Counted from the stretch's first letter, positions 8,517 through 43,878 are shown. The stretch is DNA of 64,000 nt from Chloroflexota bacterium (GCA_947475545.1 CANJLL010000001.1:755734-819733), one strand, 5' to 3'. The notes: generated from the letters alone by a model not told the origin. Program-made: numbers and translations.

Positions 8517-8529
8517 CACCGCCTCCGGT

Positions 8530-23655: not shown

Positions 23656-23692
23656 GTCGTGTGCTCCTGCGCTTGGGGGGTCAAGTGTGCCT

Positions 23693-24816: not shown

Positions 24817-24844
24817 CGCCCCCGGCCACAGGAGGGAACGACCC

Positions 24845-25687: not shown

Positions 25688-25811
25688 CGCAACGGAGCCA
25701 ACCTCGAGGTTCGGCGGGCGGACCGGCGGCAAGGCCGGCCCCCACCGCCTGGCCGGCGACCGATCCGCGGGTCGTCGGTGATCATCCGGTGAGGCGGTCG
25801 GGAGGTTCACG

Positions 25812-28268
25812 TTGAAGCAGGTCGGACGCCGCGTCACCGGGCTGACCAACACCCAGCTGGCCGCCGGCAAGGGCACGTTCGTCAACGACGTCGTCCTCCC
25901 GGACATGGCCTTCCTCGCCTTCCTGCGCAGCCCGTACGCCCACGCCCGGATCCGGTCCGTTGACATCTCCGCGGCCATGGCGCGCCCCGGCGTCATCAAG
26001 GTCCTCACGGGTGAGGACGCCTACCGCGACCTGCGCCCCATCCCGGAGGCCTGGAACACCCGTGAGATTGGCGCCAAGGGCGTCCTCTGGTACCCCATCG
26101 TCAAGGACCGCGTCCGCTACGTGGGCGAGGTGGTCGCGGCCGTGGTGGCCGAGGACCGCTGGACCGCCGCCGCGGCCCTGGACGACATCGAGGTGGACTA
26201 CGAGGAGCTGCCGGTCGTCACGGACCCCATCAAGGCGATGGAGCCGGGTGCCGACCTGGTGGAACCGGCCTGGGGCGACAACCTGCTGATCACCCGCGAC
26301 TGGATCGCCGGCGACGTGGACGCCGCCCTGGCCGGCGCGGACCGCGTCGTGACCGGGACCGTCCGCTCCAACCGGATCACCGGTGTCTCCATCGAGGGAC
26401 GTGGCTGCGTCGCCCAGTGGGACGCGTTCGCGCGGAAGCTGACCTTCTGGGAATCCACCCAGAACCCGCACCCGCTGCGCAGCTTCCTGGCCGAGACGCT
26501 CAACATGTCGGAGAACTCGATCCACGTGATCCAGCCGCACGTCGGCGGCGGATTCGGGCTCAAGCAGCCGCCCTTCCAGGAGGAGCCGGTCGTGGCCCAC
26601 GCCGCCATGGTCACCGGTCGGCCGGTGAAGTGGATCGAGGAGCGCGCCGAGAACTTCATGGCCACGGGCCACTCGCGCGATACCCGCTTCGAGTACACCG
26701 TGGGCTTCAACGCCGATGGCCGGGTCCACGGGCTGCGGATCAAGGTCATCGCCGATGTGGGGGCGCCCACGGCGCTCCTGGGCTGGGGCCAGTCGTTTGT
26801 CACCGGCTACAGCCTGCCGGGCGGCTACGACATCCCCGACACCAACGTCCAGCTGTACGTCGTGGTCACCAACAAGTGCCCGTGGAACGCCTACCGCGGG
26901 TTCGGGAAGGACGCCCAGTCGTTCGTCATGGACCGGATCATGGACCACGTGGCGCGCGAGACCGGCCTCGACCGGACGGCGATCCGCTACGCCAACTTCA
27001 TCCGCCCGGACGACTTCCCCCACTCCCAGCCGTCTGGCGCGATCCTGGACTCCGGCAACTACCAGGGCGCGCTCGACAAGCTGCTCAAGAAGATCGACTA
27101 CGCCGGGTTCCGCGCGCTGCAGGCGCAGGCCGCGGCCGAGGGGCGTCGGATCGGACTGGGCCTGGGCCAGGAGCTGACGCCCGAGGGCTGCGCCATGCCT
27201 GGCGCGCTGATGATCTCCGCCTACGACGGTGCCACGGTGCGGGTCGCACCCTCCGGCGAGGTCACCATCCTGACCGGCGTCACCTCGCCCGGCTGCGGGA
27301 ACGAGACCGCCTTTGCCCAGATCGCGGCGGACGTCCTCGGCTGCAAGCTGGAGACCATCCGGGTGATCCAGGGCGACACGGAGCTGTGCCCGTACGGCCT
27401 GGGCAACTACTCGTCGCGCGGCACCATGTACGGCGGCTCCGCCACCCAGCTCGCGGCGCAGGACCTCCGCAACAAGCTGGCAGAGGTGGCCGCATCCATG
27501 CTGGAGGCCGCCCCGGCGGACCTCGAAGCCGCGGACGGCACCTTCTTCGTGCAGGGCAGCCCGGATCGCTCGGTCGCCTTCAACGCGGTCGTCAACCAAG
27601 TCTACCGACACACCTTCGGCAAGCACGCCGAAGGTGTGGAACCGGGCCTGGAGTCCACCCGCTACTTCCGGATGGGCAACATCTACCACCAGCCAGAGAC
27701 CCAGGGCCGCTTCTCCAACTACCCGGCCTGGCCCTTTGGGAGCAGCGCCGTGGTGGTGGAGGTGGATCCCCAGACCGGGATGGTCAAGGTGCTGGAGTAC
27801 ACGCTGGTCGAGGACGCCGGGACCGTGATCAACCCGCTCCTGGTGGACGCCAACCTGCATGGAGCCATCACCCAGGGCATCGGCTCCGCGATGTACGAGA
27901 ACATCTCGTACGACGAGAACGGCCAGCTCCAGACGGCCACGCTGATGGACTACACCATCCCCACGGCCATCGAGATGCCGATGTTCTCCATCGAGCACCA
28001 GGAGACGCCCTCGCCGTTCACGCCGCTGGGCATGAAGGGCGCCGGCGAATCGGGCCTGGGCTCCACGCTCGGCGCGCTGTGCGGCGCGATCGAGGATGCC
28101 TTCCCCGAGCTTGACCTGCGGATCACTGACCTGCCGCTCACCCCCAACCGGGTCTGGCAGTCGCTCCGGACCGCACCCCGAAAGGATGGGTCCGGCTTCG
28201 GCCCGTCACCGTCCGCCACGGGTGCTGCCCGGCCCGCCGTCGCCGGCGCCGTGGAGGCCATCCGATGA
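25812..28268 (+). CDS. Xanthine dehydrogenase-family molybdopterin-binding large subunit
   Basis: TTG start 6 nt after GGAGG (25801-25805). HVGGGFG, NAYRGFGKDAQ loop, GAGESG. ~818 aa. Confidence 0.9.
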   Translation: MKQVGRRVTGLTNTQLAAGKGTFVNDVVLPDMAFLAFLRSPYAHARIRSVDISAAMARPGVIKVLTGEDAYRDLRPIPEAWNTREIGAKGVLWYPIVKDRVRYVGEVVAAVVAEDRWTAAAALDDIEVDYEELPVVTDPIKAMEPGADLVEPAWGDNLLITRDWIAGDVDAALAGADRVVTGTVRSNRITGVSIEGRGCVAQWDAFARKLTFWESTQNPHPLRSFLAETLNMSENSIHVIQPHVGGGFGLKQPPFQEEPVVAHAAMVTGRPVKWIEERAENFMATGHSRDTRFEYTVGFNADGRVHGLRIKVIADVGAPTALLGWGQSFVTGYSLPGGYDIPDTNVQLYVVVTNKCPWNAYRGFGKDAQSFVMDRIMDHVARETGLDRTAIRYANFIRPDDFPHSQPSGAILDSGNYQGALDKLLKKIDYAGFRALQAQAAAEGRRIGLGLGQELTPEGCAMPGALMISAYDGATVRVAPSGEVTILTGVTSPGCGNETAFAQIAADVLGCKLETIRVIQGDTELCPYGLGNYSSRGTMYGGSATQLAAQDLRNKLAEVAASMLEAAPADLEAADGTFFVQGSPDRSVAFNAVVNQVYRHTFGKHAEGVEPGLESTRYFRMGNIYHQPETQGRFSNYPAWPFGSSAVVVEVDPQTGMVKVLEYTLVEDAGTVINPLLVDANLHGAITQGIGSAMYENISYDENGQLQTATLMDYTIPTAIEMPMFSIEHQETPSPFTPLGMKGAGESGLGSTLGALCGAIEDAFPELDLRITDLPLTPNRVWQSLRTAPRKDGSGFGPSPSATGAARPAVAGAVEAIR

Positions 28269-29137
28269 TCACCGCCGAGCTCCAGTTCCACCGGCCCGGG
28301 TCCGTCGCTGAGGCCCTGGAGCTGCTGGCCCGCCACGGCGACGACGCCAAGATCCTGGGTGGTGGCATGAGCCTGGTCCCCACCATGACCCTGGGCCTCG
28401 CCCGCCCCGAGATCGTCATCTCCCTCAACCACATCACCGAGCTCCGCGTCATCGCGGAGGACGCGGCCGCAGGCACGCTCCGGATCGGCGGGACGGCGCG
28501 CCACAACGACGTGATCGCCTCGCCCCTGGTCGCGCGTCATGCCCCGCTCCTCGCCGATGCGGCGCGCCACATCGGCGACATGCAGGTCCGCAACCGCGGC
28601 ACCATCGGCGGCAGCGTGGCCCACGCGGATCCCGCGGCGGACTACCTCCCGGCCCTGGTCGCGCTGGACGCGTCCGTGGTGGTCCGCAGCACGCGCGGCG
28701 AGCGGGTCATCCCAGCCGCGGAGTTCTTCATCGACGTCATGGCCACGGCCCTGGCGCCCGACGAGTTGATCGCCGAAATCCGTGTCCCGTCGCAGGGCAC
28801 CGCGCGGGGTGCCTATCGGCGCCTCACCCGGGTCGAGGGCTCCTTCGCCATCGTCAACGCCGCGGCCCTGGTCCGTCCGGCCGGCTCGGGCGCCTCGGTG
28901 GTAGCCATTGGCGGGGTCGCCGGGGCGCCAGTCGCGGTGGACGCCAGCACGGCCGTCTCGGCCGGCCTCACGGGCTCCGCCCTGGCGGCCTTCGAGGATG
29001 CGGTTCGCGCCGCCTGCCCCGAGCCCTTCGAGGATCTCAACGGCGACGCGGTCTACCGCCGCGAGATGGCCGTCATCCACGCCCGCCGCGCGCTGCTTGC
29101 GGCTGCGGGCCGCGCAGCCGCCGGCGTGACCGTCTGA
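28265..29137 (+). CDS. FAD-binding subunit of molybdenum hydroxylase (CoxM/XdhB-like)
   Basis: ATGA overlap with the L gene. ILGGGMSLVP and RNRGTIGGSVAHADPA motifs. Confidence 0.85.
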   Translation: MITAELQFHRPGSVAEALELLARHGDDAKILGGGMSLVPTMTLGLARPEIVISLNHITELRVIAEDAAAGTLRIGGTARHNDVIASPLVARHAPLLADAARHIGDMQVRNRGTIGGSVAHADPAADYLPALVALDASVVVRSTRGERVIPAAEFFIDVMATALAPDELIAEIRVPSQGTARGAYRRLTRVEGSFAIVNAAALVRPAGSGASVVAIGGVAGAPVAVDASTAVSAGLTGSALAAFEDAVRAACPEPFEDLNGDAVYRREMAVIHARRALLAAAGRAAAGVTV

Positions 29138-29179
29138 CCCGCTGACCCGCGCGACCCCACGAGCGCAGGAGACCCCCTG

Positions 29180-29719
29180 ATGCAGACCACCATCAAGCTC
29201 ACCGTCAACGGCCGGGCGCGGACCGTCGAGGTTGACTCGCGGATGATCCTCGCGGACATGCTCCGCGACCAGCTCCGCCTGACCGGCACGCACATCGGCT
29301 GCGGCACCGGCAACTGTGGCGCGTGCACGGTCATGCTCGACGGCCGGACGGTGAAGTCGTGCTGCGTCCTGGCGGCCGACGCGGACGGCGCCGACGTCCT
29401 CACCGTGGAGGGCCTGTACACCTCCCCGGACGACCTCCACCCCATCCAGCAGGCGTTCATCGCCAACCAGGGGCTCCAGTGCGGCTACTGCACCCCCGGG
29501 ATGATCCTCTCCGCCAAGCAGCTGCTGGACGCCAACCCCGATCCCACGGAGGACGAGATCCGGCACGGCATCTCGGGCAACCTGTGCCGCTGCACCGGCT
29601 ACCACTTCATCGTGGAGAGCATCCAGGATGCCGCCCGGGTCCTGCGCGGCGAGGCGTCGGCCCCGTCGGCCTCCATCACGGGCCTGCCGGCAAGCCCCGC
29701 GACCGACGTGGCCGGCTGA
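29180..29719 (+). CDS. (2Fe-2S)-binding subunit (CoxS/XdhC-like)
   Basis: [11 protein letters not shown] and CGYCTPG...CRCTGY cysteine clusters. Confidence 0.9.
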
Positions 29720-29778
29720 CCAACCGGGCACCAAACCCGCCTCGCCCTCCCCCACCCCGCCACGGAGCCCCCCTTCCC

Positions 29779-31203
29779 ATGGCACATGACCTCCGCAGCG
29801 CCCTCGATCTCCTCGACGCCGCCGGCGACCTGGAGACGGTCGCGCGCCCGGTGGATCGCGCCTGGGAGGTGACCGCTGTCCTGGACCGTCTCGAGCGTGA
29901 CGGGCGGTTCCCCGCGGTCCGGTACGATGCCGTCGAGGGCTTCCCCGGCTGGGCGATCGCGGGCAACCTCTTCGCCACCCGGTCCAAGATCGCCGCGTTC
30001 CTGGGCTGCGCGCCGGACCAGGTGACGGAGACTCTGGCCGCGCGCCTGGAGTCCCCGATTGACCCCATCCTCGTTTCCGGCGGTCCCGCCGCGCCGTCCC
30101 AGGAGGTGGTCCTGCTGGGCGACGACGCCACCCTGGACCGGATCCCGCTGGTCACTCACCACGAGCGGGACGCCGCGCCGTATGTCTCGCTGGGCGTGAC
30201 CATCGCCAAGGATCCCGAGACCGGCCGCCGGAACATGGGCGTCTACCGCTACATGCAGCACGGGCCTCGCTCGTTGATCCCGTCGCTCACGTCCATCGCC
30301 AACATCAGCGACCTGTTCAAGAAGGCCGAGGAGCGAGGCGTGCCCCTCGAGATCGCCATCCTCCCCGGCGTCCATCCGTTGCTCGCCCTGGCCGCCTCGT
30401 ACTCCGCCCCAACCGGCACGGACGAGCTGGCCCTGGCCGGCGGCCTCCTGGGCCGCCCCGTGGAGCTGGTCCGGGCCAGGACGCTCGACCTGGAGGTCCC
30501 GGCCGAGGCCGAGGTGGTCATCGAGGCCCGGATCATGCCCGGCGGGCGCTACCCGGAGGCGCCCTTCGCCGACATGTCGCGCTCGTACAGCCGGGTGAAG
30601 CAGGGGCCCATGACGGAGGTCTCGGCGATCACGCACCGGCGCAACCCCATCCTGCAGCTGGCCTTCTCCGGCCACCCCGACGCGACCAACATGGCCGCGG
30701 TCTGCCACGAGGTCGCCATCCTGCGGGCCACCCGCCAGGCGTCCCGTGGGATCACCGGCGTGCACGTCCCCGCCAGCGGCTACGGCTTCCACTGCTACAT
30801 CGCCATGAAGAAGCGACCCACGGTGGAGGGACGCGAACGCGGCGAGCAGATGAACGTGATGCTGGCGGCGCTGGGAGCCGTCCCGCAGATCAAGCTGATC
30901 ATCGTGGTCGACGACGACGTCGACATCTACCAGGACGAGGCCGTGCTGGGCGCCCTGGCCCGCCGGTTCCAGGTGGTGGACCCCATCACCCGCGATCAGC
31001 GGATCCTGGTCATCCCGGCCGCCAAGGGCGCGTCGTACGACCCGTCCAGCTTCCACCGCGAGTATCCCAACTCCAAGCTGCTCATCGACGCCACCATCCG
31101 GAGCGACCTGACCGACGAGCAGCGCAACAGCTTCACCGAGGCCGCCACCATCGGCGCCGACCGGATCGATCTCGCCCAATACCTGGAGGAGCGCACCCGA
31201 TGA
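29779..31203 (+). CDS. UbiD-family decarboxylase (paralog 3)
   Basis: Start [18 protein letters not shown]. Full-length UbiD fold. Its stop overlaps the next gene's start (ATGA). Confidence 0.9.
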
Positions 31204-32615
31204 GCCAGGCCGATCTCGTCATCAAGGGCGGCAAGGTCGTCAGCGAGCATGGCATCCGCGAGCAGTCGATTGCCGTCAAGGACGGGAAGATCGTCGCCGT
31301 GGGCGAGCAGGAGTCGATGCCGTCCGCCGCCCGGACGATCGATGCCGGGGGCAAGCACGTCTTCCCCGGGATCATCGACCCCCACATCCACCTGCAGACG
31401 TTCTCGAACAAGTTCGACATCAACATCAAGACCGAGTCGAAGTCCGCGGCGATCGGCGGCGTGACCACCATCATCCCCACCCTCCTCAACCGCGAGGACA
31501 ACCAGCTCTCCTTCCTGGAGCACTTCCCGTGGTGCAAGGAGGCGGTCGACAAGTACGCCACCATCGACGTGGCATTCAGCGCCGTGCTGGGCAGCACCGC
31601 CCAGATCCGCGAGATCCCCGAGATGGCCAGGCTGGGGATCAGCTCGTACAAGTTCTACATGGCCTACACCCAGGACGAGGCGAGCGTCTTCGGGATCAGC
31701 GCCATGGACGACGGCCAGGTCCTGGAGGGCCTGCGGGTCATCAAGGAGGTGGGCTACCCCGCCATGATGATGGTCCACGCCGAGAACATGACGATCATCC
31801 ACAAGCTCAAGGGCGAGTACATCGCCGCGGGCCGGGACGACCTCAAGGCGTGGACCGACGCGCGGCCCGACATCGCGGAGGAGGAGGCCACCCGGCGGGC
31901 CATCTGGTACGCCAGGGAGACCGGCAGCCGCCTGTACATCGTCCACATGACGATCGGGCGCGGCGTGCAGTGGGTCCGCGAGGCGCAGGCGCAGGGCGTG
32001 GACGTCATCGCCGAGACCTGCCCGCACTACCTGGTCCTGACCAAGTACGACAACGACAAGGTGGGCCGGCTGGGCAAGGTCAACCCCCCGCTCCGCGACC
32101 TCGAGAGCCAGGAGGCGCTCTGGGAGGGGATCCGCAACGGCGCCATCTCGTGCGTGGGCTCGGACCACTCCACCATCACGCCGCTGGCCGACAAGGTCCA
32201 GAAGGACATCTGGACAGCAGTCCCGGGCTTCCCCGGCTCCGGGATGCTCCTGCCGATCATGCTCAGCGAGGGCTACCACAAGGGCCGCGTCTCGCTGGAG
32301 AAGATCGCCTGGATCCTGTCCACCAACAACGCCCGCGTCTGGGGCCTCTACCCGGAGAAGGGCACCATCCAGGTGGGCTCGGACGCGGACTTCGCCATCG
32401 TCGACATCGATCGCAAGATGACGGTCAGCCCGGAGTACATGCAGTCCTTCGCGGACTGGGGCCTGTACGATGGCTGGGAGGTGACCGGCTGGCCGACGCA
32501 CACCATCGTGCGCGGCGAGGTGGTGATGGAGAACGGGAAGATCGTGGGTCGCGAGGGCTACGGCAAGTACATCCCGCGCTACCCGCGGTCGCGTCCCGAA
32601 GGGCCGCGCGCGTAG
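31200..32615 (+). CDS. Dihydropyrimidinase/D-hydantoinase-like cyclic amidohydrolase
   Basis: [10 protein letters not shown], carbamylated-Lys region ([10 protein letters not shown]), VHAEN, GSDHS. ~471 aa. Confidence 0.85.
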
Positions 32616-32654
32616 CAAGGGCGTGGGCCGCCCGTCGGCCCCAGTGTCAACTGG

Positions 32655-33712
32655 TCAGCCCGTCGGCGCGTCCAGCTCGCGGGCGTAGGCCGGGAAGCGG
32701 AACCGGTGATCGCGGGTGAGAATCCCGCCGTGGCCGATGCCGGACACCAAGCGCGGAGTGGGAGCCTCGCCGGTCAGCAGGCGCGGCAGCACCAGGTCGG
32801 CCGCGGTGGCCTTCGAGAACGCACCGCAGGTGGGCAGGCCCAGGATCGCCGTGCGGCCCACCCGGCCCAGCCAGAGCATTGAGCCCGGGTGCGCCGGCAC
32901 GCCCTGGCGCACCACGCGGCCGCCCAGCGCCGCCACCGCCAGGTAGAACGGGTCGGCCGGGTCCGTGCTGCCGCCGCCGGCCGTCAGGACCACCTCCGCT
33001 CGCCCGGGTCCACGGGTCAGGCGACGCAGCGCCTCGACCACCGACGCCTCGTCGTCCGCGTAGTCGATCCCCACCAGGGTTGAGCCCAGCGTCTCCACCT
33101 TGGCCCGCACGCTGGCTTCGAACCGCTCGCGCGCCAAGGCGTGGAGCGACTCCAGGACCACGGCGCCCACGCGCATTGGCTTGAAGGGCGCCACCCAGAC
33201 CAGCGGGCGCCGCGCCTCACCGGGGCCTGCCGCGATCCGCTCGCCGCGGGCGACCACGGCTTCGGCCACCACGTGGGGCGCCACCTTGGCGCTGGCCACC
33301 AGGTCGCCCGCCTTGACGATCGAACCGTCAAGAACCGTGAAGACCTCCAGCGGGTCGATCCGGTTGAGCCGCTCCAGCTGGGTCGTCCGGACGTGGACCA
33401 CGCCCGGCCAGGCGGCGCGCAGGTCCACCCGGCTCTCGTTGGGGCCATGGGTGGTGAGCCCCTCGCCGGCCACGGCGGCCGCCAGGCGCAGCGCGGCGTC
33501 GTCCTCGTGCAGGTCGCCTGGCTCCATCACCACCAGGGTCAGCAGGCCGCTCGGGAGCCCATCCGGTCCCAGGGTGACGAGCCGGTCCAGGTCCGCGGCG
33601 CTCAGGCGGCGGCCCTTGTCCCAGCGCTCGCCGTCCACGCGCACGTCGCGCGCCAGCACGGCGCCCACAGGACGCTCGAAGGGCTGGCCGGGCTGGAATC
33701 GGACGATCCGCA
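32655..33712 (-). CDS. MoeA-like molybdopterin-binding protein (MoCF-biosynthesis domain)
   Basis: C-terminal VVLTAGGGSTDPADP...GLPTCGAFSKATAADLVLPRLL resembles the MoeA/MogA cofactor-binding domain. The N-terminus is GAVLARDVRV-like. Start chosen at MRIVRF; the upstream track extension is junk. Confidence 0.5.
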
Positions 33713-33763
33713 TCTCGCCCGACAGTCTGCACGATGCCGCACCCGCCCGCAGCCGACGGCGGT

Positions 33764-34106
33764 TCAGCCGCGGCCCAGGACCACGTCGATGCCGGCCAGG
33801 ACCAACTGGAGGTTCGACGCCGACAGGCGTCCGGCTCGCTCCGTCAGCGCCGCGCGATCCAGCGTGACCAGCTGCGAGACGTTGGCCGCCGACGGCGTGG
33901 CCAGCCCGGTCGCCCGGCCCGACAGGAGCACGTTGCCCGGCGCATCGGCCCATCGGCCATTGCTCGTCAGGGCGACGCAGACCACCGTCCGAATGGTGCT
34001 GGCGTTGAAGGCATCGCCGTGGACGACGACGGGCCGACGGAACCCGTGGGCCGAAGCGGCCGGGTCGCCCAGGTCGGCCCACCAGACCTCCCCCTCCGGC
34101 GATCAC
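33764..34106 (-). pseudogene. MazF/PemK-family toxin gene with an apparent +1 frameshift near its 5' end
   Basis: The frame after the antitoxin TGA encodes SPEGEVWWADLGDPAASAHGFRRPVVVHGDAFNAS...QLVTLDRAAL... (MazF-like) but has no start codon. The GTG overlapping the antitoxin stop (GTGA) is in the +1 frame. The GGAGGGGGAGG run has five G where four would restore MIAGGEVWWADLGD.... Confidence 0.55.
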
Positions 34107-34342
34107 CAGTCCACGGCCTCCAGGGTCCGGCGGGCTGCAGCGGAGACAAAGCCGTCGGCAGCGTGCTCATCGATCGCCGCCAGGGCGGCGTCCAGGCCTG
34201 CAGTCACCTCGTCGGGCGCGTGCCGGGCGAGGTACTCGCGGAGGGCGGCGCTGTACACGTCGCTCCGCGAGCGGCGCTCCCGGCTGGCCAGGCGATCCGC
34301 CCGCGCAAAAAGGTCGTCGGGCACGGACACGGCGGTCTTCAT
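34103..34342 (-). CDS. Ribbon-helix-helix (CopG/PemI-like) antitoxin
   Basis: 79 aa, starting MKTAVSVPDDLFARADRLASRERRSRSDVYSAALREYL. It lies directly upstream of the MazF-like ORF. Confidence 0.65.
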   Translation of the reverse strand: MKTAVSVPDDLFARADRLASRERRSRSDVYSAALREYLARHAPDEVTAGLDAALAAIDEHAADGFVSAAARRTLEAVDW

Positions 34343-34413
34343 ACCGGGAGAATGACCGTGGGCCCAGGCTCCATCGCGTTCCGGGTCTCGCGGCTCCTAT
34401 GCGACCTCGTGGT

Positions 34414-37050
34414 CTAGCTCGCCTTGCGCACCTTGACCTTGACGCACGAGTCGATCGCCGCCGAGAGCGCGTCCATCCGGTCCGGCGTGTACTTGAGCAG
34501 CGAGTTCACGTGGACGCCCTTGCCCTGCGATTCCTTGCGGCCCAGCTTCTTGCGGCCCAGGATCGAGGGCACCGCCAGGCACTCGGGGTGGACCCCCTCG
34601 GTCAGGCGGGCCACCCCTTGGGCCGTCCGGCCATGCGTCGTCTCCAGGACGATGGTGTCGCCGTCGCGGATCCCCTTCTTCTCCGCGGTGGCGCGGTTGA
34701 TCCCGATGGTGAACACGCGGCTGTTGCGGTCCGCCATGTCCATCAGGACCGGGTTCTCGGCGCTGTAGGTGCCGGCCAGGAAGGTGAGCTTGTTGTTCAC
34801 CACCCAGAGGTCGTACTCGGCCGGGGCCTCCTCCGGCGTCAGGCACGGCTTCCAGTCCACCATGGGCGTGTAGTCGCCGGTGTCCCACGGGACACCCTGC
34901 ATGTCCGTGTAGGCCTTCACGTCAAGGCCGGCATCGATGTAGTGCTCCAGGTAGAGCGGCACCCGGCCGGCGTTGTGGATCTTTGGGTAGCTGTACTTGG
35001 CCGGCCGGTTCTCGCCCGAGTAGTAGCCGTGCTCGACCATGTACGCCAGGCCGTGCTCCTCGCCCAGCTGCGATCGAAGCCAGCGGTCGGAGATCTCCTC
35101 CCACGTGTACTTCTTGTCGCGCGCCAGCGCGTTGGACCCCTCCAGGACGGCCATCGCGTTGAGCGCGGTGTACATGTCGGGGAGGACACCCACGCGGTCC
35201 GCCGCGTCCAGGAGCACCTCGCCCCAGTGGCGGGCCAGCGGGACGGCCTTGACGATGGGGTGCTGGATGTTCCAGCTATAGGGCCGTCCGGGGAGCGGCG
35301 GGTCCATCAGGCCGTCCGGGTTGGACACGATGGGGACGAGGCGTTCCAGCGAATGGGTGTCCGGCAGCAGCAGGTCCGCAAACTGGGCGGTCTCGTCCGG
35401 GTAGGTGTTCATCGAGCAGATGAACGGGATGGTCCGGAGCGCCTCGGCCATGATCTCCGGGTCCGGGCCGCTGGCCATGATGTTGCCGCGGCACTGGAGC
35501 AGGACCTCGCACTTGTAGGTGAGGCCGTACTCCTCGCCGTGGAGGAGCGAGTGGCCCACCATCGCGCGGCTGTAGACGGCCGTGGGGAAGAGCTCCAGGA
35601 GCTCCAGCGTCTCGGGCGGCTTGATCTCGCGCCGCGGCAGCGCGGACTTCATGTGGCCGCCCCGGGGGTTGCCGGGGGTGATCATCCCGTCCGGGTCCAG
35701 CTTGGGGCCCCAGGTGGGTCCCGACGACGACGAGTTGAGCGTCCCGCCCGGCACGTCCACCGCGCCCAGGAGGATGTTGAGCTGGCCCATGGCCTGTCCG
35801 CTCATCATCCCGTGGCGGTGGGCGGAGATGCCGCGGTAGAAGGTGACGGCGGCCGACCGGAGCGGGTAGGTGACGCCGTCGATCTCGATGGTCCCGCCGA
35901 TCCCGGCGGCCTCCACCAGCTCCCTGGAGATCCGAGTGATGGACCCGGCCGGGATGGTGGTGATCTCCTGGACGCGGGCCGCGGTGTACGGCGCCAGGTG
36001 TTGCTTGAACGGGACGAACGCGGGGCTGACGGCAACGCCGTTGACCACGAACTCGCCCTCCAGAGCGGCCGCGTCCGGGTCCACCTGGTCGAAGCGGCCG
36101 GTGGCGCCGGTCGCCGAGATGCCCACCAGGGGCTTGCCGGACTCCGGGTCGCGGACGTACCGACCGTCCTGGCCCACCAGGTAGGTAGCGTTGGAGTACC
36201 GGCGCAGGAACGGCTTGTCGTACTGATCCAGGACCAGCACCCACTGGTGCATGATCCCCAGCGCGAGCGCGGCGTCGGTGCCGGGACGGATCGGGAGCCA
36301 CTCGTCGGCGTGGGATGCGGCCGCGGTGAGGACCGGGTCCACCACCACCAGCTTCATGCCGCGGGCGCGGGCGTCGGCCATCTCGCGGCTGAGCCCCATG
36401 GAGTTGTGGCCACCCACAAAGCCCAGCGACGCCCCGGCCATCAGCAGGTAGTTGCAGTGCTTGATGTCGGGGTGCATGTCGTTGCTGGCGGTCAGCGTGT
36501 ACGCCACGGGGTGCGAGGCGTTGCCGCAGAACATGCCGGCGGAGCCCGAGGTGACGTTGGGCGTCCCCAGCGCGTACGCGAAGGCGCGCAGGAGCGGGTA
36601 GCTGTAGATGTCGAAGGTGAGACCCAGGATCCCGCGCGGGTCCCTCTCCACGGCGGCCCGCAACTTCGTCGCGAGCAGGACCATGGCCTCGTCCCAGGAG
36701 ACCTCCTTCCAGCCTGGATCGACGCCGATCCCCTTCTGCGAGGTGGTCCGCACCATGGGCGCCTTGACCCGGTTGGGGGAGTAGACGTTCATGAGGGCCG
36801 ACAGGCCCTTGGCGCACGTTCGGCCGTAGTTGGGCGGGGCGTCCGGCACGCCCTCGATCTTCACCGCGACGCCATCGACGCGGTGGACGCGGACGGTGCA
36901 GGCGTTGAAGCACATGTCGCAGCCGGTGGTGAGCCAGACGTCTTCCTTGACGCCCCGGCCCGGACCCGTGGCGGCACCCGAGGCCGCACCGGCGCCCGGA
37001 CCCACCCCCGGGACCCCGCCCGCATTGATCACCGGAAGCTGGACTGCCAC
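34414..37050 (-). CDS. Molybdopterin oxidoreductase of the DMSO-reductase (bis-MGD) family with N-terminal [4Fe-4S] motif
   Basis: CDMCFNACTVRV...C cysteine cluster, followed by an ~830-aa Mo-bisPGD catalytic body. Start placed at the GTG 6 nt after GGAGG (reverse of 37057-37061). The track ORF extends to 37179. Confidence 0.8.
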   Translation of the reverse strand: MAVQLPVINAGGVPGVGPGAGAASGAATGPGRGVKEDVWLTTGCDMCFNACTVRVHRVDGVAVKIEGVPDAPPNYGRTCAKGLSALMNVYSPNRVKAPMVRTTSQKGIGVDPGWKEVSWDEAMVLLATKLRAAVERDPRGILGLTFDIYSYPLLRAFAYALGTPNVTSGSAGMFCGNASHPVAYTLTASNDMHPDIKHCNYLLMAGASLGFVGGHNSMGLSREMADARARGMKLVVVDPVLTAAASHADEWLPIRPGTDAALALGIMHQWVLVLDQYDKPFLRRYSNATYLVGQDGRYVRDPESGKPLVGISATGATGRFDQVDPDAAALEGEFVVNGVAVSPAFVPFKQHLAPYTAARVQEITTIPAGSITRISRELVEAAGIGGTIEIDGVTYPLRSAAVTFYRGISAHRHGMMSGQAMGQLNILLGAVDVPGGTLNSSSSGPTWGPKLDPDGMITPGNPRGGHMKSALPRREIKPPETLELLELFPTAVYSRAMVGHSLLHGEEYGLTYKCEVLLQCRGNIMASGPDPEIMAEALRTIPFICSMNTYPDETAQFADLLLPDTHSLERLVPIVSNPDGLMDPPLPGRPYSWNIQHPIVKAVPLARHWGEVLLDAADRVGVLPDMYTALNAMAVLEGSNALARDKKYTWEEISDRWLRSQLGEEHGLAYMVEHGYYSGENRPAKYSYPKIHNAGRVPLYLEHYIDAGLDVKAYTDMQGVPWDTGDYTPMVDWKPCLTPEEAPAEYDLWVVNNKLTFLAGTYSAENPVLMDMADRNSRVFTIGINRATAEKKGIRDGDTIVLETTHGRTAQGVARLTEGVHPECLAVPSILGRKKLGRKESQGKGVHVNSLLKYTPDRMDALSAAIDSCVKVKVRKAS

Positions 37051-37200
37051 GGGGCGCCTCCATTGCTTGCGTCGATGTTGATCGGCCCGCGCGGGCGGGT
37101 GATTGCGGGGATGCTGGCACCGCGAAGCGTCGGTGGCAATTGGGACCGTGCGTCCGGCGCCTCTCCGCGCCGGACGCACGCGATGCCGTTGGGGTCGCGC

Positions 37201-38061
37201 TCAGCCGACGCGCTCGATCGCGGCCTCGAGCGCTCGGCGGACCTGGACCCGGATAAGCGCCGTCCGGTACTCGCGGTCGGCGTGGATGTCGGAGGCGACC
37301 AGGACGCCGTCCGTGGCGTGGGCGGCGGCGGCGGCCGGATCGCCGGAGCTGAGGAACTCCTGCTCCGCAGCCGAGGCCCGGTAGGGGCACTCACCGACCC
37401 CGGTGATCCCGATGGCCGCCCGGTCGAACCGGCCGCCTCCACCGGTCGAGCGGCCGATGACAACGGCGGCCCCGGCGAGCGCGTACCCCGAAGCCGGCTG
37501 CTCCTGGGCGCGGTAGGCAGACCTGTAGTCACCCGATGCGGCCGGCAGGCGGATCTCCGTAATGAGCTCGTCGGGGAGGAGCACGGAGTTGAACGCACCT
37601 TCAAAGAAGCTGGTAAGGGCGATGGTTCGACCGCCTCGAGCCGACCGGACCACCACCTCGGCGTCGAGCACCAGGAGGCAGGCTGGGAGATCGGCGGCGG
37701 GGTCCACGTGGGCGACCGCTCCTCCGATCGTCCCCCGGTTGCGCACCTGGACATCGCCGATGGTGGGCAGGACGTCCGCCAGCAGGCCGTAGACGGTGAT
37801 GGCCGGGTTTGCCAGGAGCTCGGAGTAGGTTGTCAGGGCGCCGATCGAGAGCCCGCCGTCGCCGAGGCGGTTCACGCCGCGCAGCTCGTTCAGGCGCCCG
37901 ATGTCGATGAGCCGGTCGGGCCGGGCCAGCCTGGTCTTCATGATGGGCAGCAGGCTGTGGCCCCCGGCCAGCACCTTGGTGCCCGGGTCCGCCTCGGCGA
38001 GGAGGGCCAGGGCCTGGTCCACGCTGTCCGCCCGGCGATAGTCGAACGCGAGCGACGTCAT
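37201..38061 (-). CDS. FAD-binding subunit of molybdenum hydroxylase (CoxM-like)
   Basis: LAGGHSLLP and RNRGTIGGAVAHVDPA. ATGA overlap with the upstream L gene. Confidence 0.85.
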   Translation of the reverse strand: MTSLAFDYRRADSVDQALALLAEADPGTKVLAGGHSLLPIMKTRLARPDRLIDIGRLNELRGVNRLGDGGLSIGALTTYSELLANPAITVYGLLADVLPTIGDVQVRNRGTIGGAVAHVDPAADLPACLLVLDAEVVVRSARGGRTIALTSFFEGAFNSVLLPDELITEIRLPAASGDYRSAYRAQEQPASGYALAGAAVVIGRSTGGGGRFDRAAIGITGVGECPYRASAAEQEFLSSGDPAAAAAHATDGVLVASDIHADREYRTALIRVQVRRALEAAIERVG

Positions 38062-40460
38062 GCCTGGCCTCCCTTCGCGGTCTGGATCGCGCGCCAGACG
38101 GTCTGTGGCGTGTACGGCATGTCGAGGTGACGGACCCCGAGCGGGCCCAGCGCGTCCACCACGGCATTGGCCACCGCTGCGGTGCTGGCGATGGCGCCAG
38201 CCTCACCGACGCCCTTGACCCCGATGGGGTTGACCGGCGACGGCGTGACGGTCTCGTCGAGCTCGAACGACGGCAGCCAGGCGGCCCGGGGCAGCGCGTA
38301 GTCCAGCAGCGAGCCGGACAACAGCTGGCCCTGGTCGTCGTAGACGGCGCCCTCCCAAAGCGCCTGGCCGACGCCCTGGGCGATCCCGCCGTGGAGCTGG
38401 CCGTCCACGATCATCGGGTTGATCTTGTTGCCGACGTCGTCCACGGCGACGTAGCGGACCAGGTCGACATGCCCGGTCTCCTCGTCGATCTCGACGATGG
38501 CGATGTGCGTCCCGAACGGCCACGTGCAGTTCGTCGGGTCGTAGTACGCCGTCTCGTCGAGGTACGGCTCCATGCCCACGGGGGTATCGAACGCAAGGTC
38601 AAGCGCGAAAGCGATCTCCTGGAGGGTCTTCACCTTGTCCGGGCTGCCCCGCACGCTGTAGTTGGCGCCGTCGATCTCGATATCCTCGGGCGCCGCCTCG
38701 AGCATGTGCGCGGCGTAGCGCCTCGCCTTCTCCCGGATCTTGCCCGCGGCCTTGATCGCCGCCGTGCTCCCGACCGACGAAGTCCGGCTGCCGTACGACC
38801 CGTAGCCGAACGGCGTCCCCTGGGTGTCCGAGTGCTGGACGATGACGTCGTCCACCGGCACGCCCAGCTCGTGGCTGATGACCTGCGAGTAGGTCGTCTC
38901 GTGACCCTGTCCCTGCGGGGAGGTCCCGATGGTGAGGACGACCTTCCCGGTCAGGTGGACGCGGATGTTGGACGACTCCCACATCGCGGCACCCCAGCCT
39001 TCGCCGACCGCACCGATCCACTTGCTGGGCGCGACGCCGCAGACCTCGAGATAGGTGCTCAGGCCGAGGCCCAGGTACTTGCCGCGCAGGCGGGCATCGG
39101 CCTTCCGGGCGGCCAGGTCCTCGTAGCCGACCATGGCGAGGGCCTTGTCGAGCGCCGGCTCGTAATTGCCGGAGTCGATGTAGATCTTCGCGCCGCCGGA
39201 CGCGGTCCCGAGGCCCGACGGGTTGTCGTAGGGGAAGGCGTTGGGGGCGATGAAGTTGCGGCGCCGGATCTCCGCGCGGTCCATGCCGATCTCGCGGGCG
39301 AACAGGTCCATCGCCCGTTCGATCACGTAGGTCGCCTCGGGTCGGCCGGCGCCCCGGTAGGCGTCCACGAACGTCGTGTTCGTGTAGACGCCGGTCACCT
39401 CGGCCTACACGTTGGGGATCTTGTAGCAGCCGCTCAGGACCCTGGCGTATAGCGTTGTGGGGATGCCCGGGCCGATGGTGGACAGCCGCCCGCCGAGATT
39501 GGCCAGCGTCTTGACCCGCAGCCCGGTGATCTCGCCGTCACGCTTGCCGGCGATCTCGAGGTACGTAATGTGATCGCGCCCGTGGATCGTGGACTGGTAG
39601 TTCTCGCGCCGACCCTCGATCCACTTGACCGGGCGCCCACCGATCCGCTTGGAGGCCAGCAGGACCAGGGCATAGTCGGCGTAGCAGAAGATCTTGGTTC
39701 CAAAGGCGCCGCCGACATCCGGCGCGATGCAGCGGAGCTTGTGCTCCGGGATGCCCATCGTGAAGATGCCGACCAGCAAACGCTGGATGTGCGGCGTCTG
39801 GCTGGACATCCAGAGGGTGTACTCCTCGGTGCCCGGGTTGTACCAGCCGATGTCGCCGCGCGTCTCCATCGGGTTGGGGATCAGGCGCTGGTTCACGAGT
39901 CGCTGGCGGACCACGACCTCGGCCGTATCGATGGCCGCCTCGGTGCCGGCCTTGTCGCCGACGCTCCACTCGAAGACGACGTTGTTCGGGGCGTTCTCGT
40001 GGAGCTGCGGCGCGCCCGCGGCGACGGCCTTCTCCGCGTCCACGACCGCCGGCAACGGCTCGTAATCCACGACGATCTCGGCCAGGGCATCGAACGCCTG
40101 GGCCGGGGTCTCCGCGACGACCGCGGCGACGCCCTCGCCGGTCCACTTGACCCCATCGGTGGCCAGAATCCGCGGCGAGTTCACGTTGTTCCTGAGGCCG
40201 GCCGAGCCGCCCGCCGGCCAGACCATCGGCAAGGGGTTGTACGGGACGTCCGCGCCGACAATCACGTGGATGACGCCCGGCATGGCCCTGGCGGCCGTGA
40301 CGTCAACGGAGCGGATATTGGCGTGGGCATATGGGCTGCGCAGGATGGCCATGTGGGCCATCGACGGCAGCTTGATGTCATCGATGTAGTTGCCCGCACC
40401 GGTGATGAACCGGGGATCCTCGCGGCGCTTGATGGAAGCGCCGAGTGCGTCGATCGCCAT
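38058..40460 (-). pseudogene. Xanthine dehydrogenase-family molybdopterin large subunit interrupted by one in-frame TAG (complement 39405..39407); may instead be a naturally split gene
   Basis: The N-terminal part (351 aa: MAIDALGASIKRREDPRF...GCYKIPNV) and C-terminal part (446 aa: GVYTNTTFVDAYRGAGRPEA...GVGEAG) are contiguous in one frame. A single amber codon separates them. A GTG lies 2 codons after it. Confidence 0.75.
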
Positions 40461-40472
40461 CGAAGCCTCCCC

Positions 40473-40973
40473 CTACCCGACGATGCCGGAGTCGGATGCC
40501 GACCCGGTGTGCATGGTCACGGCGGCCTCACGGATGGCCGCGACGATGTTGTGATAGCCCGTGCAGCGGCACAGGTTGCCGTGAATCGCGTGGCGAATCT
40601 GCTGGTCGCTGGGATCCGGGACGCGGGCCAGCAGGTCTGCGGCGGACATGATCATGCCGGGCGTGCAAAAGCCGCACTGGAGGCCATGCTTCTCCCAGAA
40701 CGCAGCCTGGATCGGATGGAGCTCGCCTCCGGCCGCCAGTCCCTCGATCGTCGTCACGGTGGCGCCGTCCGCCTGCACGGCCAGGACCGTGCACGACTTC
40801 ACCGACTGGCCGTCCATGTGGACCGTGCATGCGCCGCACTGTGAGGTGTCACAGGCGACGTGGGTGCCGGTCAGGCCAAAGTCTTCGCGCAGGACCTCGA
40901 CCAGCAACCGCCGCGGCTCGACGTCGACCTCCCGGCGCTGGCCATTCACCACGAGCGTCACGTGTTCGGCCAC
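40473..40973 (-). CDS. (2Fe-2S)-binding subunit (CoxS-like)
   Basis: [11 protein letters not shown] and CGFCTPG...CRCTGY. Confidence 0.9.
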
Positions 40974-41178
40974 GGGCGGACCCCCCTTCTGTGCGGTCGC
41001 CGGCGAGGCGACCTGCGGACCACCACGAGGGCTCGCCAGGAGGTTGCCGGCTTACCGGCACCGAGCGGGCCAGAAGTGCCGCAGATGCTGGCACCGCGAA
41101 GGGGCGCTGGCAAGTGGGTGATGTCGATCCGGCGCAGCGGCCCGCGGCCGACACGGGAGCGGCGGCGCGGACCCGAGG

Positions 41179-42435
41179 TCAGGCCCGCGCGACCTCCTCG
41201 AGCGCCCTTCCGAAGCCGTCCACGATCGCGTCCAGCTCCGCCTCCGTGATCACGAACGCCGGCGACAGCTGGATGGCGTGGCCGCGGATGCTGCGCGTCG
41301 CCACCCCGTGGCGGATGCACGCCGCCGCCACCTTGTCCGCGAGCGCCGGGTCGGCCGCCAGGAGGTCGGGCCGCAAGGCGACCGCGCCCGTCAGGCCCAC
41401 GGTGCGAATCTCGCTCACCAGCGGTGCACCCTCCAGGCGCCGGAGCGCCCGGTCCAGGATCGGCGTCATGGTTCGGACCCGCCCGATCAGGTCCTCGCGC
41501 TCGACGATGTCCAGGTTCGCCAACGCCGCGACGGCAGATGCCGCGTGTCCGCTATACGTGTAGCCGTGCTTGAAGACGCCGCCCGGCACCGGGTTGTCCC
41601 AGAATGGCGCCCGAACGCGTTTGCCCACGAGCACCCCGCCGATCGGGAGGTACCCGGATGAGACGCCCTTGGCGAAGGTCATCATGTCCGGCTGGATCCC
41701 GTACGCGATGCTGCCGAACCACTCACCCATTCGGCCAAACCCGCAGATGACCTCGTCGGCGATGAGCAGGATGTCGTGCTCGCGGCAGAGGCGGTTCACC
41801 TCCGCCCAGTAATGCGGCTCCGGGGCGATGACCCCGCCGGCCCCGATGACCGGTTCGCCGATGAACGCGGCAATCTCGTGGCCACGCTGCTCGAAGAGCG
41901 CGCCCAGGCCCTCCGTGTCACCGACGCCGACGTGGATCACCTCGTCGATGAAGGCGCCGCCGTAGCCCGCCTTGTTGCCGGGGATGCCCGCCAGCGACGT
42001 GCCCCAGCCGTGCATCCCGTGGTAGCCGTGCTCACGGGAGACGATGACCCGCTTCCCGGGCTTGCCGAGGAGGTCCCAGTAGCGGCGCGCCAGCTTGGCG
42101 GCCGTGTCCACCGCGTCGGAACCGCCGGCGCCGAAGAAGACGACCGTGTCCTCCATCGGCGAGAGGGCCGCCAGGCGGTCGGCAAGCTGGATGGTGGCTT
42201 CGGTGGCGAACGCCCCGAAGTTGGAGTAGGCGTGGAGCTGCGTCAGCTGGGCTGCGACGCGGTCGGCGATCTCCTGGCGCCCGTACCCAACGTTGCAGTA
42301 CCAGAGGGATGCGGTGGCATCCAGGTAGTCGCGGCCGTGCACGTCGGTGATGACGACGCCCTTGCCGGAGCGGATGATCAGCTCGGCGTTCGCCACGCTG
42401 TGCATGTCGGCGAACGGATGCCAGAGCGAGCCCAT
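41179..42435 (-). CDS. Class III (omega) aminotransferase, PLP-dependent
   Basis: Aspartate-aminotransferase-fold class III motifs with the FAKGVSSGYLP lysine region. ATG preceded by AGGAGG with a 5-nt spacer. Confidence 0.85.
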   Translation of the reverse strand: MGSLWHPFADMHSVANAELIIRSGKGVVITDVHGRDYLDATASLWYCNVGYGRQEIADRVAAQLTQLHAYSNFGAFATEATIQLADRLAALSPMEDTVVFFGAGGSDAVDTAAKLARRYWDLLGKPGKRVIVSREHGYHGMHGWGTSLAGIPGNKAGYGGAFIDEVIHVGVGDTEGLGALFEQRGHEIAAFIGEPVIGAGGVIAPEPHYWAEVNRLCREHDILLIADEVICGFGRMGEWFGSIAYGIQPDMMTFAKGVSSGYLPIGGVLVGKRVRAPFWDNPVPGGVFKHGYTYSGHAASAVAALANLDIVEREDLIGRVRTMTPILDRALRRLEGAPLVSEIRTVGLTGAVALRPDLLAADPALADKVAAACIRHGVATRSIRGHAIQLSPAFVITEAELDAIVDGFGRALEEVARA

Positions 42436-42564
42436 CGACACCTCCTGGACGCGACTCACGGGGCGCTCGACCTGTGGGCGGTGGCCGCGTTCTCCAGAGC
42501 GATGGTAGCGAGCCGGACGGGCGCCGTGGCGGGCGGCCGACAGGTCCACCCCCGGGCGGGAGGA

Positions 42565-43878
42565 CTACCCGCCGAGCCGCACCCGTTCTGCCAGCGCCAT
42601 CGGGGCGCTGACCGTCCCGCCGTTCTGGCCGGGATTCGGCGTGCGGACCGGGCTGGCCCAGCGGGCCTGGCCGCCCACCATCCCGGCCACCATCAGGATC
42701 ACCAGGAGCGCGATCCCGATCAGGGGCACGAGCCGGCGCTGGAGCGGGCTCTCCGGCTCGCCGGCGCCCACCCACATGGAGGCCAGGGTTGGGACCTTGC
42801 CGGGCCGAACCACGAAGCCCAGCCATGCCCCCGTGACAAGCCCGCCCAGGTGCGCCAGGTTGTCGATCCCCGGGATCATGAAGCCCAGGACCAGGTTGAT
42901 CAGCACGATGCTGCCCAGTTGCGCCACCACCATGCGCGCCTGCCGGTCCAGGACCGGCCGATGCGTGCGGTTGGCCGCAATCAGCACGCCGAACAACCCG
43001 AAGATGGCCCCGGATGCGCCCACCGCGAGCCGACCGGACCCCAGCATGTAGCTGGCGATCGAACCGCCCAGGGCGCACAGCAGGTAGAGGACCAGGAACC
43101 ACTTCCAGCCGTACTGGCGCTCCACCACCGGGCCCACCAGGTAGAGGGCGTACATATTGAACCCCAGGTGGAGCAAGCCGGCATGGAGCAGCGTGACGCT
43201 CAGGAGCCGCCACCACTCCCCGGCCGCCACCGCGACCTTGTCCAACTGGAGGCCCTGGTCAATGGCGTTGCCCGGGGCGTACATGGCGATCAGCGAGACG
43301 GCGACCGTGATCCCGATGACCGCCCGCGCCGCGGAGACGGCCGGCCCGTCGCCCCGGGACCGGGCGAAATAGCGGCCGGCAGCGCGGCGGTCGCCGGTCT
43401 CCTTGGCCAGCCAGCCCAGGCGTGACGCGATCTCCGCGCGATCCTCGGCTGGGGCCCGGCGGTCCGCCTGACGGTAGGCCTCGATGGCGCCGGTCAGGTC
43501 CTTGTCCCGCACCCGGGCGGATGCCAGCCGCCGCCAGGCCTGGTAGGTGGACGGCGATTCCGCAAGGCGGGGAATGGACTCCCACGTCTGGATGGCGCCG
43601 GCATCCTGGTCGAGGCGGTACAGCGAGTCCCCGAGGCCCAGCAGGGCCTGTGCGGTGATGACGTGATCGTCGAAGCCGACGACACGCTGGTAGTGGGCCG
43701 CCGCGGGGCCGAAATCTCCGTCCGCCAGCAGGGCGTCGGCGCGCGCCAGCAGGGCGAGCGCCGTGGGGCGATCCAGCGGGCCGGTGGGAATGGCCTGGGA
43801 TGCCGGACCCGAGGGCGCGGCCGGAATTGACGGCGGGGTCAAAGCCGCCTGGGCGGCGACGGGGTCGTTGGCGTCCAT
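42565..43878 (-). CDS. Rhomboid-family intramembrane serine protease with N-terminal TPR-like soluble domain
   Basis: Rhomboid GxSG (VGASGAIFGL) and LHLGFNMYAL helices, plus a C-terminal His region. N-terminal ~190 aa are TPR-like. Confidence 0.75.
   Translation of the reverse strand: MDANDPVAAQAALTPPSIPAAPSGPASQAIPTGPLDRPTALALLARADALLADGDFGPAAAHYQRVVGFDDHVITAQALLGLGDSLYRLDQDAGAIQTWESIPRLAESPSTYQAWRRLASARVRDKDLTGAIEAYRQADRRAPAEDRAEIASRLGWLAKETGDRRAAGRYFARSRGDGPAVSAARAVIGITVAVSLIAMYAPGNAIDQGLQLDKVAVAAGEWWRLLSVTLLHAGLLHLGFNMYALYLVGPVVERQYGWKWFLVLYLLCALGGSIASYMLGSGRLAVGASGAIFGLFGVLIAANRTHRPVLDRQARMVVAQLGSIVLINLVLGFMIPGIDNLAHLGGLVTGAWLGFVVRPGKVPTLASMWVGAGEPESPLQRRLVPLIGIALLVILMVAGMVGGQARWASPVRTPNPGQNGGTVSAPMALAERVRLGG

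Follow-up and report, generated by a model that had tools for sequence, protein, structure and literature searches.

A bis-MGD molybdoenzyme gene apparently inserted, together with a promoter-like element, into a conserved xanthine dehydrogenase-type operon of Limnocylindrales

Introduction

Can two classes of molybdenum enzymes be encoded by one operon, and what would they do together? The question is raised by a stretch of 64,000 nucleotides (nt) from a Chloroflexota bacterium (GCA_947475545.1, CANJLL010000001.1:755734-819733), which is called the window here. On its minus strand, the three genes of a molybdenum hydroxylase of the xanthine dehydrogenase (XDH) type are followed by a gene for a catalytic subunit of the dimethyl sulfoxide (DMSO) reductase family, which is predicted to carry a bis-molybdopterin guanine dinucleotide (bis-MGD) cofactor. 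A first-pass annotation had described the four genes as a mixed operon. It proposed that the bis-MGD enzyme, for example of a transhydroxylase or hydratase type, acts in the same aromatic or heterocyclic pathway as the hydroxylase, or that it replaces the large subunit of the hydroxylase, the gene of which is interrupted by an amber codon.

Both enzymes belong to known superfamilies, and their juxtaposition is recent and restricted to one lineage, rather than a new type of mixed operon. We consider it rather probable that the bis-MGD gene was inserted into a conserved operon, that the two enzymes are driven by paralogous promoters, and that the inserted gene encodes a cytoplasmic redox enzyme of aromatic catabolism. 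The locus would then be a clean case of a gene inserted into a conserved operon along with a duplicate of that operon's promoter. Furthermore, if the link between the enzymes is functional, it would point to a molybdenum-dependent step, so far undescribed, with which abundant uncultured bacteria of freshwater and groundwater degrade aromatic or heteroaromatic acids.

Gene order at the locus and in related genomes

The gene map is based on third-codon-position G+C, in a window with ~71% G+C, and on Pfam and NCBIfam matches (Table 1). Gene calls and Pfam domains agree with the minus-strand order reported before, that is, the 2Fe-2S small subunit (S), the amber-interrupted large subunit (L), the FAD subunit (M), a gap of ~150 bp and a bis-MGD enzyme of ~880 amino acids (aa). 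The M start and the L stop overlap by 4 nt, and the gap between M and the bis-MGD gene is exactly 150 nt long (37051-37200). The start codon of the bis-MGD gene, a GTG at 37050, is preceded by a GGAGG ribosome-binding site, and the product is identical to the database protein P0001. On the flanks, the earlier description held for the aminotransferase, and failed for the "MoeA-like" gene, which is treated below as the MoCF gene. Moreover, a MazE/MazF pair (33764-34342), absent from that description, separates the bis-MGD gene from the MoCF gene.

To find orthologous loci, the MoCF gene was traced into other Limnocylindrales genomes. A 2.8-Mb contig (L096) has the order aminotransferase-S-L-M-MoCF, with 40 nt between M and MoCF and no bis-MGD gene between them. 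Its L is intact (804 aa, 83% identical), and its aminotransferase is 69% identical and in the same position. The same core order is found in L097, with SRAP and rhomboid genes upstream, like in the window, while in L098 (MoCF 81% identical) M is followed by a 117-aa open reading frame (ORF) and then by MoCF. The MoCF identity of these relatives without a bis-MGD gene at the junction ranges from 66 to 81%. A bis-MGD gene between M and MoCF was found only in the window, in four further assemblies (L001-L004), and in L008, the metagenome-assembled genome (MAG) "uncultured Chloroflexi bacterium LJ_bin-2554", which shares 96% nucleotide identity over 8.6 kb. Because relatives carry S-L-M-MoCF without it, the bis-MGD gene is best read as a lineage-specific insertion into a conserved Limnocylindrales S-L-M-MoCF operon. 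The idea of a four-gene mixed operon did not survive this comparison, as the linkage is confined to one narrow lineage of freshwater Chloroflexota, in which it was seen in the window, in a MAG of 97% identity and probably in the 85% identical ortholog treated below. Gene order points to a recent event, and not to an ancestral mixed operon, as the reason why the two enzyme classes are adjacent. As a side observation, the S and L orthologs of L097 (3186-6029) are split into short ORFs, due either to assembly frameshifts or to a decaying operon copy.

By the same comparison, the S-L-M operon appears to have had the MoCF gene as its fourth member ancestrally, before the insertion displaced it. Those of its homologs whose sources have names are mostly placed in Candidatus Limnocylindrales, and the ratio of nonsynonymous to synonymous substitutions (dN/dS) is 0.13. 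The gene extends to 33713, and not from 32655 to 33712 as given before. Its assignment as a canonical MoeA was rejected, as Pfam matched a MoCF_biosynth domain only, without flanking MoeA_N or MoeA_C domains, and as the protein scored 20 bits on the NCBIfam MoeA model, for which the cut-off is 440. No PDB relative was found for it at E≤1.

The 85% identical ortholog P0002 has the bis-MGD gene directly followed by MoCF, without MazEF. This lineage probably shares the linkage of M and the bis-MGD gene, and the MazEF pair is probably an additional, later insertion. The M-MoCF junction resembles an insertion hot spot, holding MazEF in the window, a further ORF in the junction region of L008, and the 117-aa ORF in L098. 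Downstream of MoCF, L096 continues with TPR, AAA (CoxD-like), VWA_CoxE, XdhC_CoxI and NTP_transf_3 (MocA-type) genes. None of these cox-type maturation genes occurs anywhere in the window or in L008. Synteny also breaks after MoCF, where a convergent amidohydrolase-UbiD-S-M-L cluster starts in the window.

In this narrow lineage, a segment of 3.5 kb lies between M and MoCF, and comprises a strong hairpin, an ~80-nt copy of the region upstream of S, the bis-MGD gene and MazEF. We propose that S-L-M forms one transcription unit, and that a second, adjacent one includes the bis-MGD gene together with the downstream MazEF and MoCF.

Table 1. Positions of the features discussed, counted from the first nucleotide of the window; features of the locus are followed by those of its surroundings
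Feature	Position	Strand	Evidence or remark
Class III aminotransferase	41179-42435	minus	Pfam Aminotran_3, E=7e-76; conserved neighbour upstream of S-L-M operon
Promoter-like core, copy 1	41084-41113	minus	Upstream of S
S, XDH/CoxS-type small subunit, two [2Fe-2S] domains	40473-40973	minus	Pfam Fer2 + Fer2_2 (E=6e-36)
L, XDH / form II CoxL-type large subunit	38058-40460	minus	Pfam Ald_Xan_dh_C + MoCoBD_1 + MoCoBD_2, over two halves
In-frame TAG in L	39402-39404	minus	Context …IPNV(stop)AEVTGVYTNT…
M, XDH/CoxM-type FAD subunit	37201-38061	minus	Pfam FAD_binding_5 + CO_deh_flav_C
Perfect 14-bp hairpin, 6-nt loop	37147-37180	minus	In gap between M and bis-MGD gene
Promoter-like core, copy 2	37110-37139	minus	60 nt upstream of bis-MGD start codon
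bis-MGD (DMSO reductase family) catalytic subunit, 878 aa	34414-37050	minus	Pfam Molybdop_Fe4S4 + Molybdopterin + Molydop_binding
Ribbon-helix-helix (RHH) antitoxin, MazE-like	34103-34342	minus	Pfam RHH_1
PemK/MazF toxin	33764-34102	minus	Pfam PemK_toxin, E=8e-19
MoCF_biosynth-domain "molybdopterin-binding protein", 352 aa	32655-33713	minus	Pfam MoCF_biosynth, 32.5 bits
Dihydropyrimidinase-like amidohydrolase	31200-32615		After UbiD
UbiD decarboxylase	29779-31203		After second XDH set
Second intact XDH-type set, L-M-S order	25782-29719	plus	
DUF6282 + short-chain dehydrogenase/reductase (SDR)	23842-25687		Before second XDH set
CoxG + UbiX-like flavoprotein	22458-23760		Opposite strand to second XDH set
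Third XDH/CoxL-type L gene	15832-18231	minus	Without adjoining S or M; flanked by major facilitator superfamily (MFS) transporter genes
Hydantoinase A	9662-12094		
Luciferase-like oxygenase	5065-6096		
Isochorismatase	2583-3281		
UbiD	992-2401		

The gap between M and the bis-MGD gene

The 150-nt gap holds two elements that suggest separate transcription. The first is a perfect, G+C-rich inverted repeat that starts 20 nt past the M stop. With -33.7 kcal/mol, this hairpin is the most stable of all 40-nt windows on both strands of the 64 kb, in which only two perfect hairpins of ≥11 bp occur. In L008, 11 contiguous pairs of the stem remain, with one compensatory double change from G:C to C:G. 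The other perfect hairpin of the window (27609-27638), with a stem of 12 bp, is part of the coding sequence for the large subunit of the second XDH set. Rfam at gathering score returned no family in the whole window, and no molybdenum cofactor or other riboswitch in the gap.

The second element, 7 nt beyond the hairpin, is promoter-like; 17 nt separate TTGCCA from CAGCAT, and there is a TG extension. It occurs exactly twice in the window, compared with 0 expected, the other copy being located upstream of S. The two cores are identical in 27 of 30 bases, and the similarity of the two upstream regions spans ~80 nt, with a local alignment score of 53, versus 19.9±2.9 (maximum 31) for shuffled sequences. 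This alignment is the best non-self match in the window. Furthermore, both copies are conserved in L008 while adjacent bases vary. Upstream of S in L096, the sequence, read by eye, holds TTGCAG, 17 nt and CACCAT, and therefore fits the element as a promoter of S-L-M.

From this we infer that a transcript would end in the gap, and that a duplicate of the operon's promoter follows. S-L-M and the bis-MGD gene, driven by what would be paralogous promoters, are probably two co-regulated transcription units, and the label "operon" for S-L-M plus the bis-MGD gene is probably wrong. What is left of the first proposal is the functional half: a single operon is made improbable by the terminator-like hairpin and the promoter-like element at 37051-37200, and co-regulation, or a role in the same pathway, stays plausible.

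The bis-MGD protein and its relatives

The N-terminal cysteine motif reported for a [4Fe-4S] cluster was found again, and extended, in an alignment of 35 relatives. The cysteines of this FS0 cluster (C41-x2-C44-x3-C48-x27-C76) are invariant, as is C172, which aligns with the region of the molybdenum-ligand cysteine in ArrA (the SSVCAEAH stretch), PsrA and acetylene hydratase. No twin-arginine motif was present in 35 N-termini (the query and 34 aligned relatives), in which only 7-40 residues precede the first cluster cysteine. The lack of this motif and the short N-terminal stretch indicate that the clade is cytoplasmic. An AlphaFold (AF2) model, with a pLDDT of 88.5 and a pTM of 0.90, has the four-domain DMSO reductase fold, and its Foldseek matches to ArrA, Psr, Nap, Fdh and acetylene hydratase all had a probability of 1.00. 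Compared with L008, dN/dS of the bis-MGD gene is 0.084, a sign of strong purifying selection. Taken together, these features point to a cytoplasmic enzyme with a Cys ligand to molybdenum or tungsten and one [4Fe-4S] cluster.

The best sequence and structure matches are the arsenate, polysulfide and thiosulfate reductases, ArrA (131 bits, template modelling (TM) scores 0.71/0.76, 20% identity), PsrA (TM 0.68/0.80) and PhsA. They share with the query the FS0 cluster and the Cys ligand to molybdenum, yet the matches cover mainly the first 280 residues at ~20% identity, and the query lacks the Tat signal of the periplasmic Psr, Phs and Arr enzymes. Scores on the NCBIfam models are far below the cut-offs, with 208 of 694 for PhsA, the best model, and 158 of 1600 for ArrA; no gene of the locus reached an NCBIfam equivalog cut-off. 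The protein thus appears to belong to an unnamed, entirely uncharacterised clade of the DMSO reductase family, and our literature search found no account of this clade or of clusters of UbiD and bis-MGD genes.

Membership in the subfamily of pyrogallol-phloroglucinol transhydroxylase and resorcinol hydroxylase was rejected, as the solved α subunit of the transhydroxylase was neither among 46 PDB sequences at E≤0.001 nor among the top 50 Foldseek matches. Pyrogallol transhydroxylase has a Ser ligand and an α subunit without a cluster, while the query has Cys and FS0.

Relatives of the protein give a hint about its past partners. After orthologs of 85-100% identity, the next relatives are 64-67% identical (P0004, P0005, P0006, P0009 and P0011). 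Where their contigs are long enough, the gene of the catalytic subunit is in each case accompanied by a 99-aa MoaD/ThiS-like ORF and by genes for a four-cluster Fer4_11 subunit and an NrfD anchor. In pairing with Fer4_11 and NrfD, these relatives resemble Psr, in contrast to the window copy, which has no B or C genes. Near the latter, no MoaD-like, Fer4_11 or NrfD gene was found, and the last two are absent from the entire window and from L008. Some of the 64-67% loci also have Amdase-family, UbiD, AMP-ligase, isochorismatase or NMT1 genes. In 7 of 49 clade loci (L005, at 9669-9968, with equivalents in L009, L015, L017, L023, L062 and L088), the MoaD/ThiS-like ORF of ~99 aa (a weak ThiS match, E=6e-4) adjoins the bis-MGD gene, in most cases immediately upstream of it; the ORF is missing in the window.

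We propose that the bis-MGD protein would derive from a cytoplasm-facing A-B-C complex, formed by a MoaD-like protein, the catalytic subunit, a four-cluster ferredoxin and an NrfD quinone anchor, of which the partners were lost. A soluble carrier may take up the electrons from FS0, or else B/C subunits with genes at another site, for example in a paralogous operon.

Metabolic neighbourhoods of the clade

The neighbourhoods (within 10 kb) of 49 non-redundant clade loci were compared with 34 loci of a remote proteobacterial clade of 28-30% identity. UbiD genes occurred at 9 of the 49 clade loci, any XDH subunit at 8 and NrfD at 17, and none of the three was found at any of the 34 remote-clade loci. 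The remote clade may be SoeA or PadB, which is no more than a guess; its proteins from Magnetospirillum and Halorhodospira loci reached no NCBIfam equivalog cut-off.

The clade is distributed over Chloroflexota, Actinomycetota, Binatia, Deltaproteobacteria, Nitrospinota and Bacillota. A scan of metagenome_contigs for close orthologs returned only relatives of 31-41% identity. In L038, a contig of a groundwater Bacillota MAG with a 43% identical protein, one strand carries an aldehyde:ferredoxin oxidoreductase, XDH L-M-S, two UbiD, an ATP-binding cassette (ABC) ATPase, a permease, the bis-MGD gene and two NMT1 genes. The MAG that includes L008 also contains L010, where an XDH L, UbiD and a bis-MGD paralog of 61% identity follow one another, and P0010 and P0021 are surrounded by NMT1, UbiD, amidase, DHOase-like and cytosine/purine-permease genes. 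This recurrence near UbiD, XDH-type enzymes and NMT1 ABC transporters across phyla suggests a role in aromatic or heteroaromatic acid catabolism. A pathway-logic analogy, and no more than that, is offered by gallate decarboxylase (UbiD family) and pyrogallol-phloroglucinol transhydroxylase (DMSO reductase family), which act as a pair in aromatic acid catabolism and thereby parallel the recurrent UbiD-bis-MGD neighbourhood.

The Bacillota MAG NC_groundwater_661 (L012, L038 and L062) carries at least five paralogs of the clade, including two tandem pairs, which fits a substrate-diversified catabolic family.

The enzyme may share a catabolic network with the UbiD decarboxylase, the XDH-type hydroxylases and the cyclic amidohydrolase nearby. 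Its most likely reaction would be a redox hydroxylation, dehydroxylation or hydroxyl transfer, with a phenolic or N-heteroaromatic acid, or the decarboxylated product of such an acid, as the substrate. A shared aromatic or heterocyclic pathway, as annotated before, is plausible in view of the promoter duplicate and of the clade's recurrence near XDH and UbiD genes in other phyla, even if a single operon is not.

Weighing the accounts

Several points weigh against the account of an insertion with a promoter copy and a shared pathway. The hairpin is terminator-like but has no U tract, and its covariation comes from two sequences only. The -10 hexamer agrees with the consensus at only 3 of 6 positions. 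A strict promoter and terminator scan of 32000-43000 gave no match; it requires a T run and hexamers that agree at 4 or more of 6 positions, and is therefore blind to these elements. Read-through from the S-L-M promoter into the bis-MGD gene is possible. The P0002 contig ends 226 nt upstream of its bis-MGD gene, before M would be reached. The two clades compared come from different phyla, so that the enrichment is taxonomically confounded, and these genomes are very rich in XDH paralogs, the window alone having three L genes. Finally, what the bis-MGD enzyme acts on, and with what it exchanges electrons, is purely conjectural.

One rival account denies the adjacency any metabolic meaning. The gene could have entered a hot spot by chance, with the promoter copy being kept to restore MoCF expression after a polar insertion. 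The differing cargo at one junction (the 117-aa ORF in L098, MazEF in the window, a further ORF in L008) would be expected in this case, and 41 of the 49 clade members have no XDH genes nearby; moreover, XDH paralogs are so common that proximity says little. However, the bis-MGD gene is under strong purifying selection, and the clade recurs beside XDH and UbiD genes in unrelated phyla. The promoter copy, moreover, stands immediately in front of the bis-MGD gene and, wherever it came from, would give this gene the same control as S-L-M. We regard a meaningless adjacency as unlikely, while giving it serious consideration.

A non-redox hydratase, of the acetylene hydratase type, would explain why the bis-MGD protein has no electron-transfer partner. 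Like the monomer-like query, the enzyme of Pelobacter acetylenicus is cytoplasmic and single-subunit, with a Cys ligand and one [4Fe-4S] cluster; the folds are similar, and it is among the nearest structures (TM 0.65/0.77). Yet sequence identity is ~19%, and the close relatives of the query belong to redox complexes, those of 64-67% identity having retained Fer4_11 and NrfD partners. In acetylene hydratase, the catalytic residue is Asp13, which follows the second FS0 cysteine. When its CQSCDINC motif is aligned with CDMCFNAC of the query, the Asp position is taken by Phe45, and by Tyr or Phe across the clade. We think a hydratase improbable.

Could the four genes be one true operon after all, encoding a hybrid enzyme in which the orphan bis-MGD subunit, recruited under a copy of the S-L-M promoter, docks on the XDH-type 2Fe-2S and FAD subunits and uses S and M for electron transfer? 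The orphan subclade, which lost its MoaD-like, B and C genes, is the one found beside S-L-M; neither S nor M is damaged, purifying selection acts on both, and the window holds no other partner gene. If true, a catalytic subunit of the DMSO reductase family would be joined to an electron-transfer module of the XDH family. Against this stand the strong hairpin and the separate promoter copy between M and the bis-MGD gene. Other orphans (L009, L012, L028, L062, P0010 and P0021) have neither S nor M nearby, and in L038, UbiD and transporter genes separate the two gene sets. We know of no DMSO reductase family subunit that was demonstrated to dock on subunits of the CoxS/CoxM type. Such a docking is very improbable in our view, and an orphaned redox enzyme, inserted with its promoter copy, remains the account that we prefer.

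The amber codon in the large subunit

The TAG breaks the L frame within MoCoBD_1, with all domains and motifs of L still present on its two sides. It is not an assembly error, because it is identical in L001-L004, which come from different samples. L008 reads TAC (Tyr) at this codon and has an uninterrupted frame across the site; the L orthologs of L008 and L096 are intact. The dN/dS of L versus L008 is 0.066 and 0.152 for the two halves, and no second lesion was seen. These comparisons indicate that a nonsense mutation turned TAC into TAG recently, within one population. Since L008 has the same architecture with TAC, the insertion of the bis-MGD gene would be older than this mutation. A split L with re-initiation at the GTG at 39398 is unlikely, because the break falls inside MoCoBD_1.

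TAG as a recoded codon was considered and rejected, as it is the ordinary stop for 12 of the 38 genes of the window, and as L008 has TAC.

The suggestion that the bis-MGD enzyme substitutes for the destroyed L builds on the interruption in this strain and in the four other assemblies, and is hardly credible, being contradicted by L008, which keeps the S-L-M-bis-MGD architecture with an intact L, by the low dN/dS of L (0.07-0.15) without a second lesion, and by the unrelated folds and cofactors of the two enzymes.

The S-L-M enzyme

The three subunits have the same Pfam domains as CoxS/CoxL/CoxM of aerobic carbon monoxide (CO) dehydrogenase, with an L of the form II CoxL type, and as archaeal glyceraldehyde dehydrogenase. 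The orthologous S-L-M loci also carry CoxD-, CoxE-, XdhC- and MocA-type maturation genes, as do cox systems; a difference from form II enzymes is the truncation of L in this strain by the nonsense codon. S has a dN/dS of 0.019 versus L008, and for M, purifying selection was read from the codon alignment.

CO_dehy_Mo_lg and glyceraldDH were the top NCBIfam models, and every equivalog cut-off was missed, with the two halves of L scoring 279 and 441 bits on CO_dehy_Mo_lg (cut-off 991). L keeps the motifs AYRGAGR, GGAFG and GVGEAG. Form I CO dehydrogenases have their own active-site signature in the place of AYRGAGR. The active-site loop of L reads DAYRGAGRPE instead of the form I signature, so that CO oxidation by this enzyme is unlikely.

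Catabolic surroundings

The locus is part of a dense catabolic island. The window holds two UbiD genes, a UbiX-like gene, three XDH L genes and CoxG, in addition to isochorismatase, α/β hydrolase, luciferase-like oxygenase, SDRs, an iron-containing alcohol dehydrogenase (Fe-ADH), hydantoinase A, a dihydropyrimidinase-like amidohydrolase and MFS transporters. The bis-MGD enzyme may have its true metabolic partner in the region around the second XDH-type set (22458-32615).

The block at 992-12094 also includes an EamA transporter, the α/β hydrolase, an SDR and the Fe-ADH. P0009, a paralog of 64% identity, is likewise located near UbiD, isochorismatase and luciferase-like genes. On the minus strand, a 1428-aa ORF at 55036-59319 has a coding-like third-position G+C.

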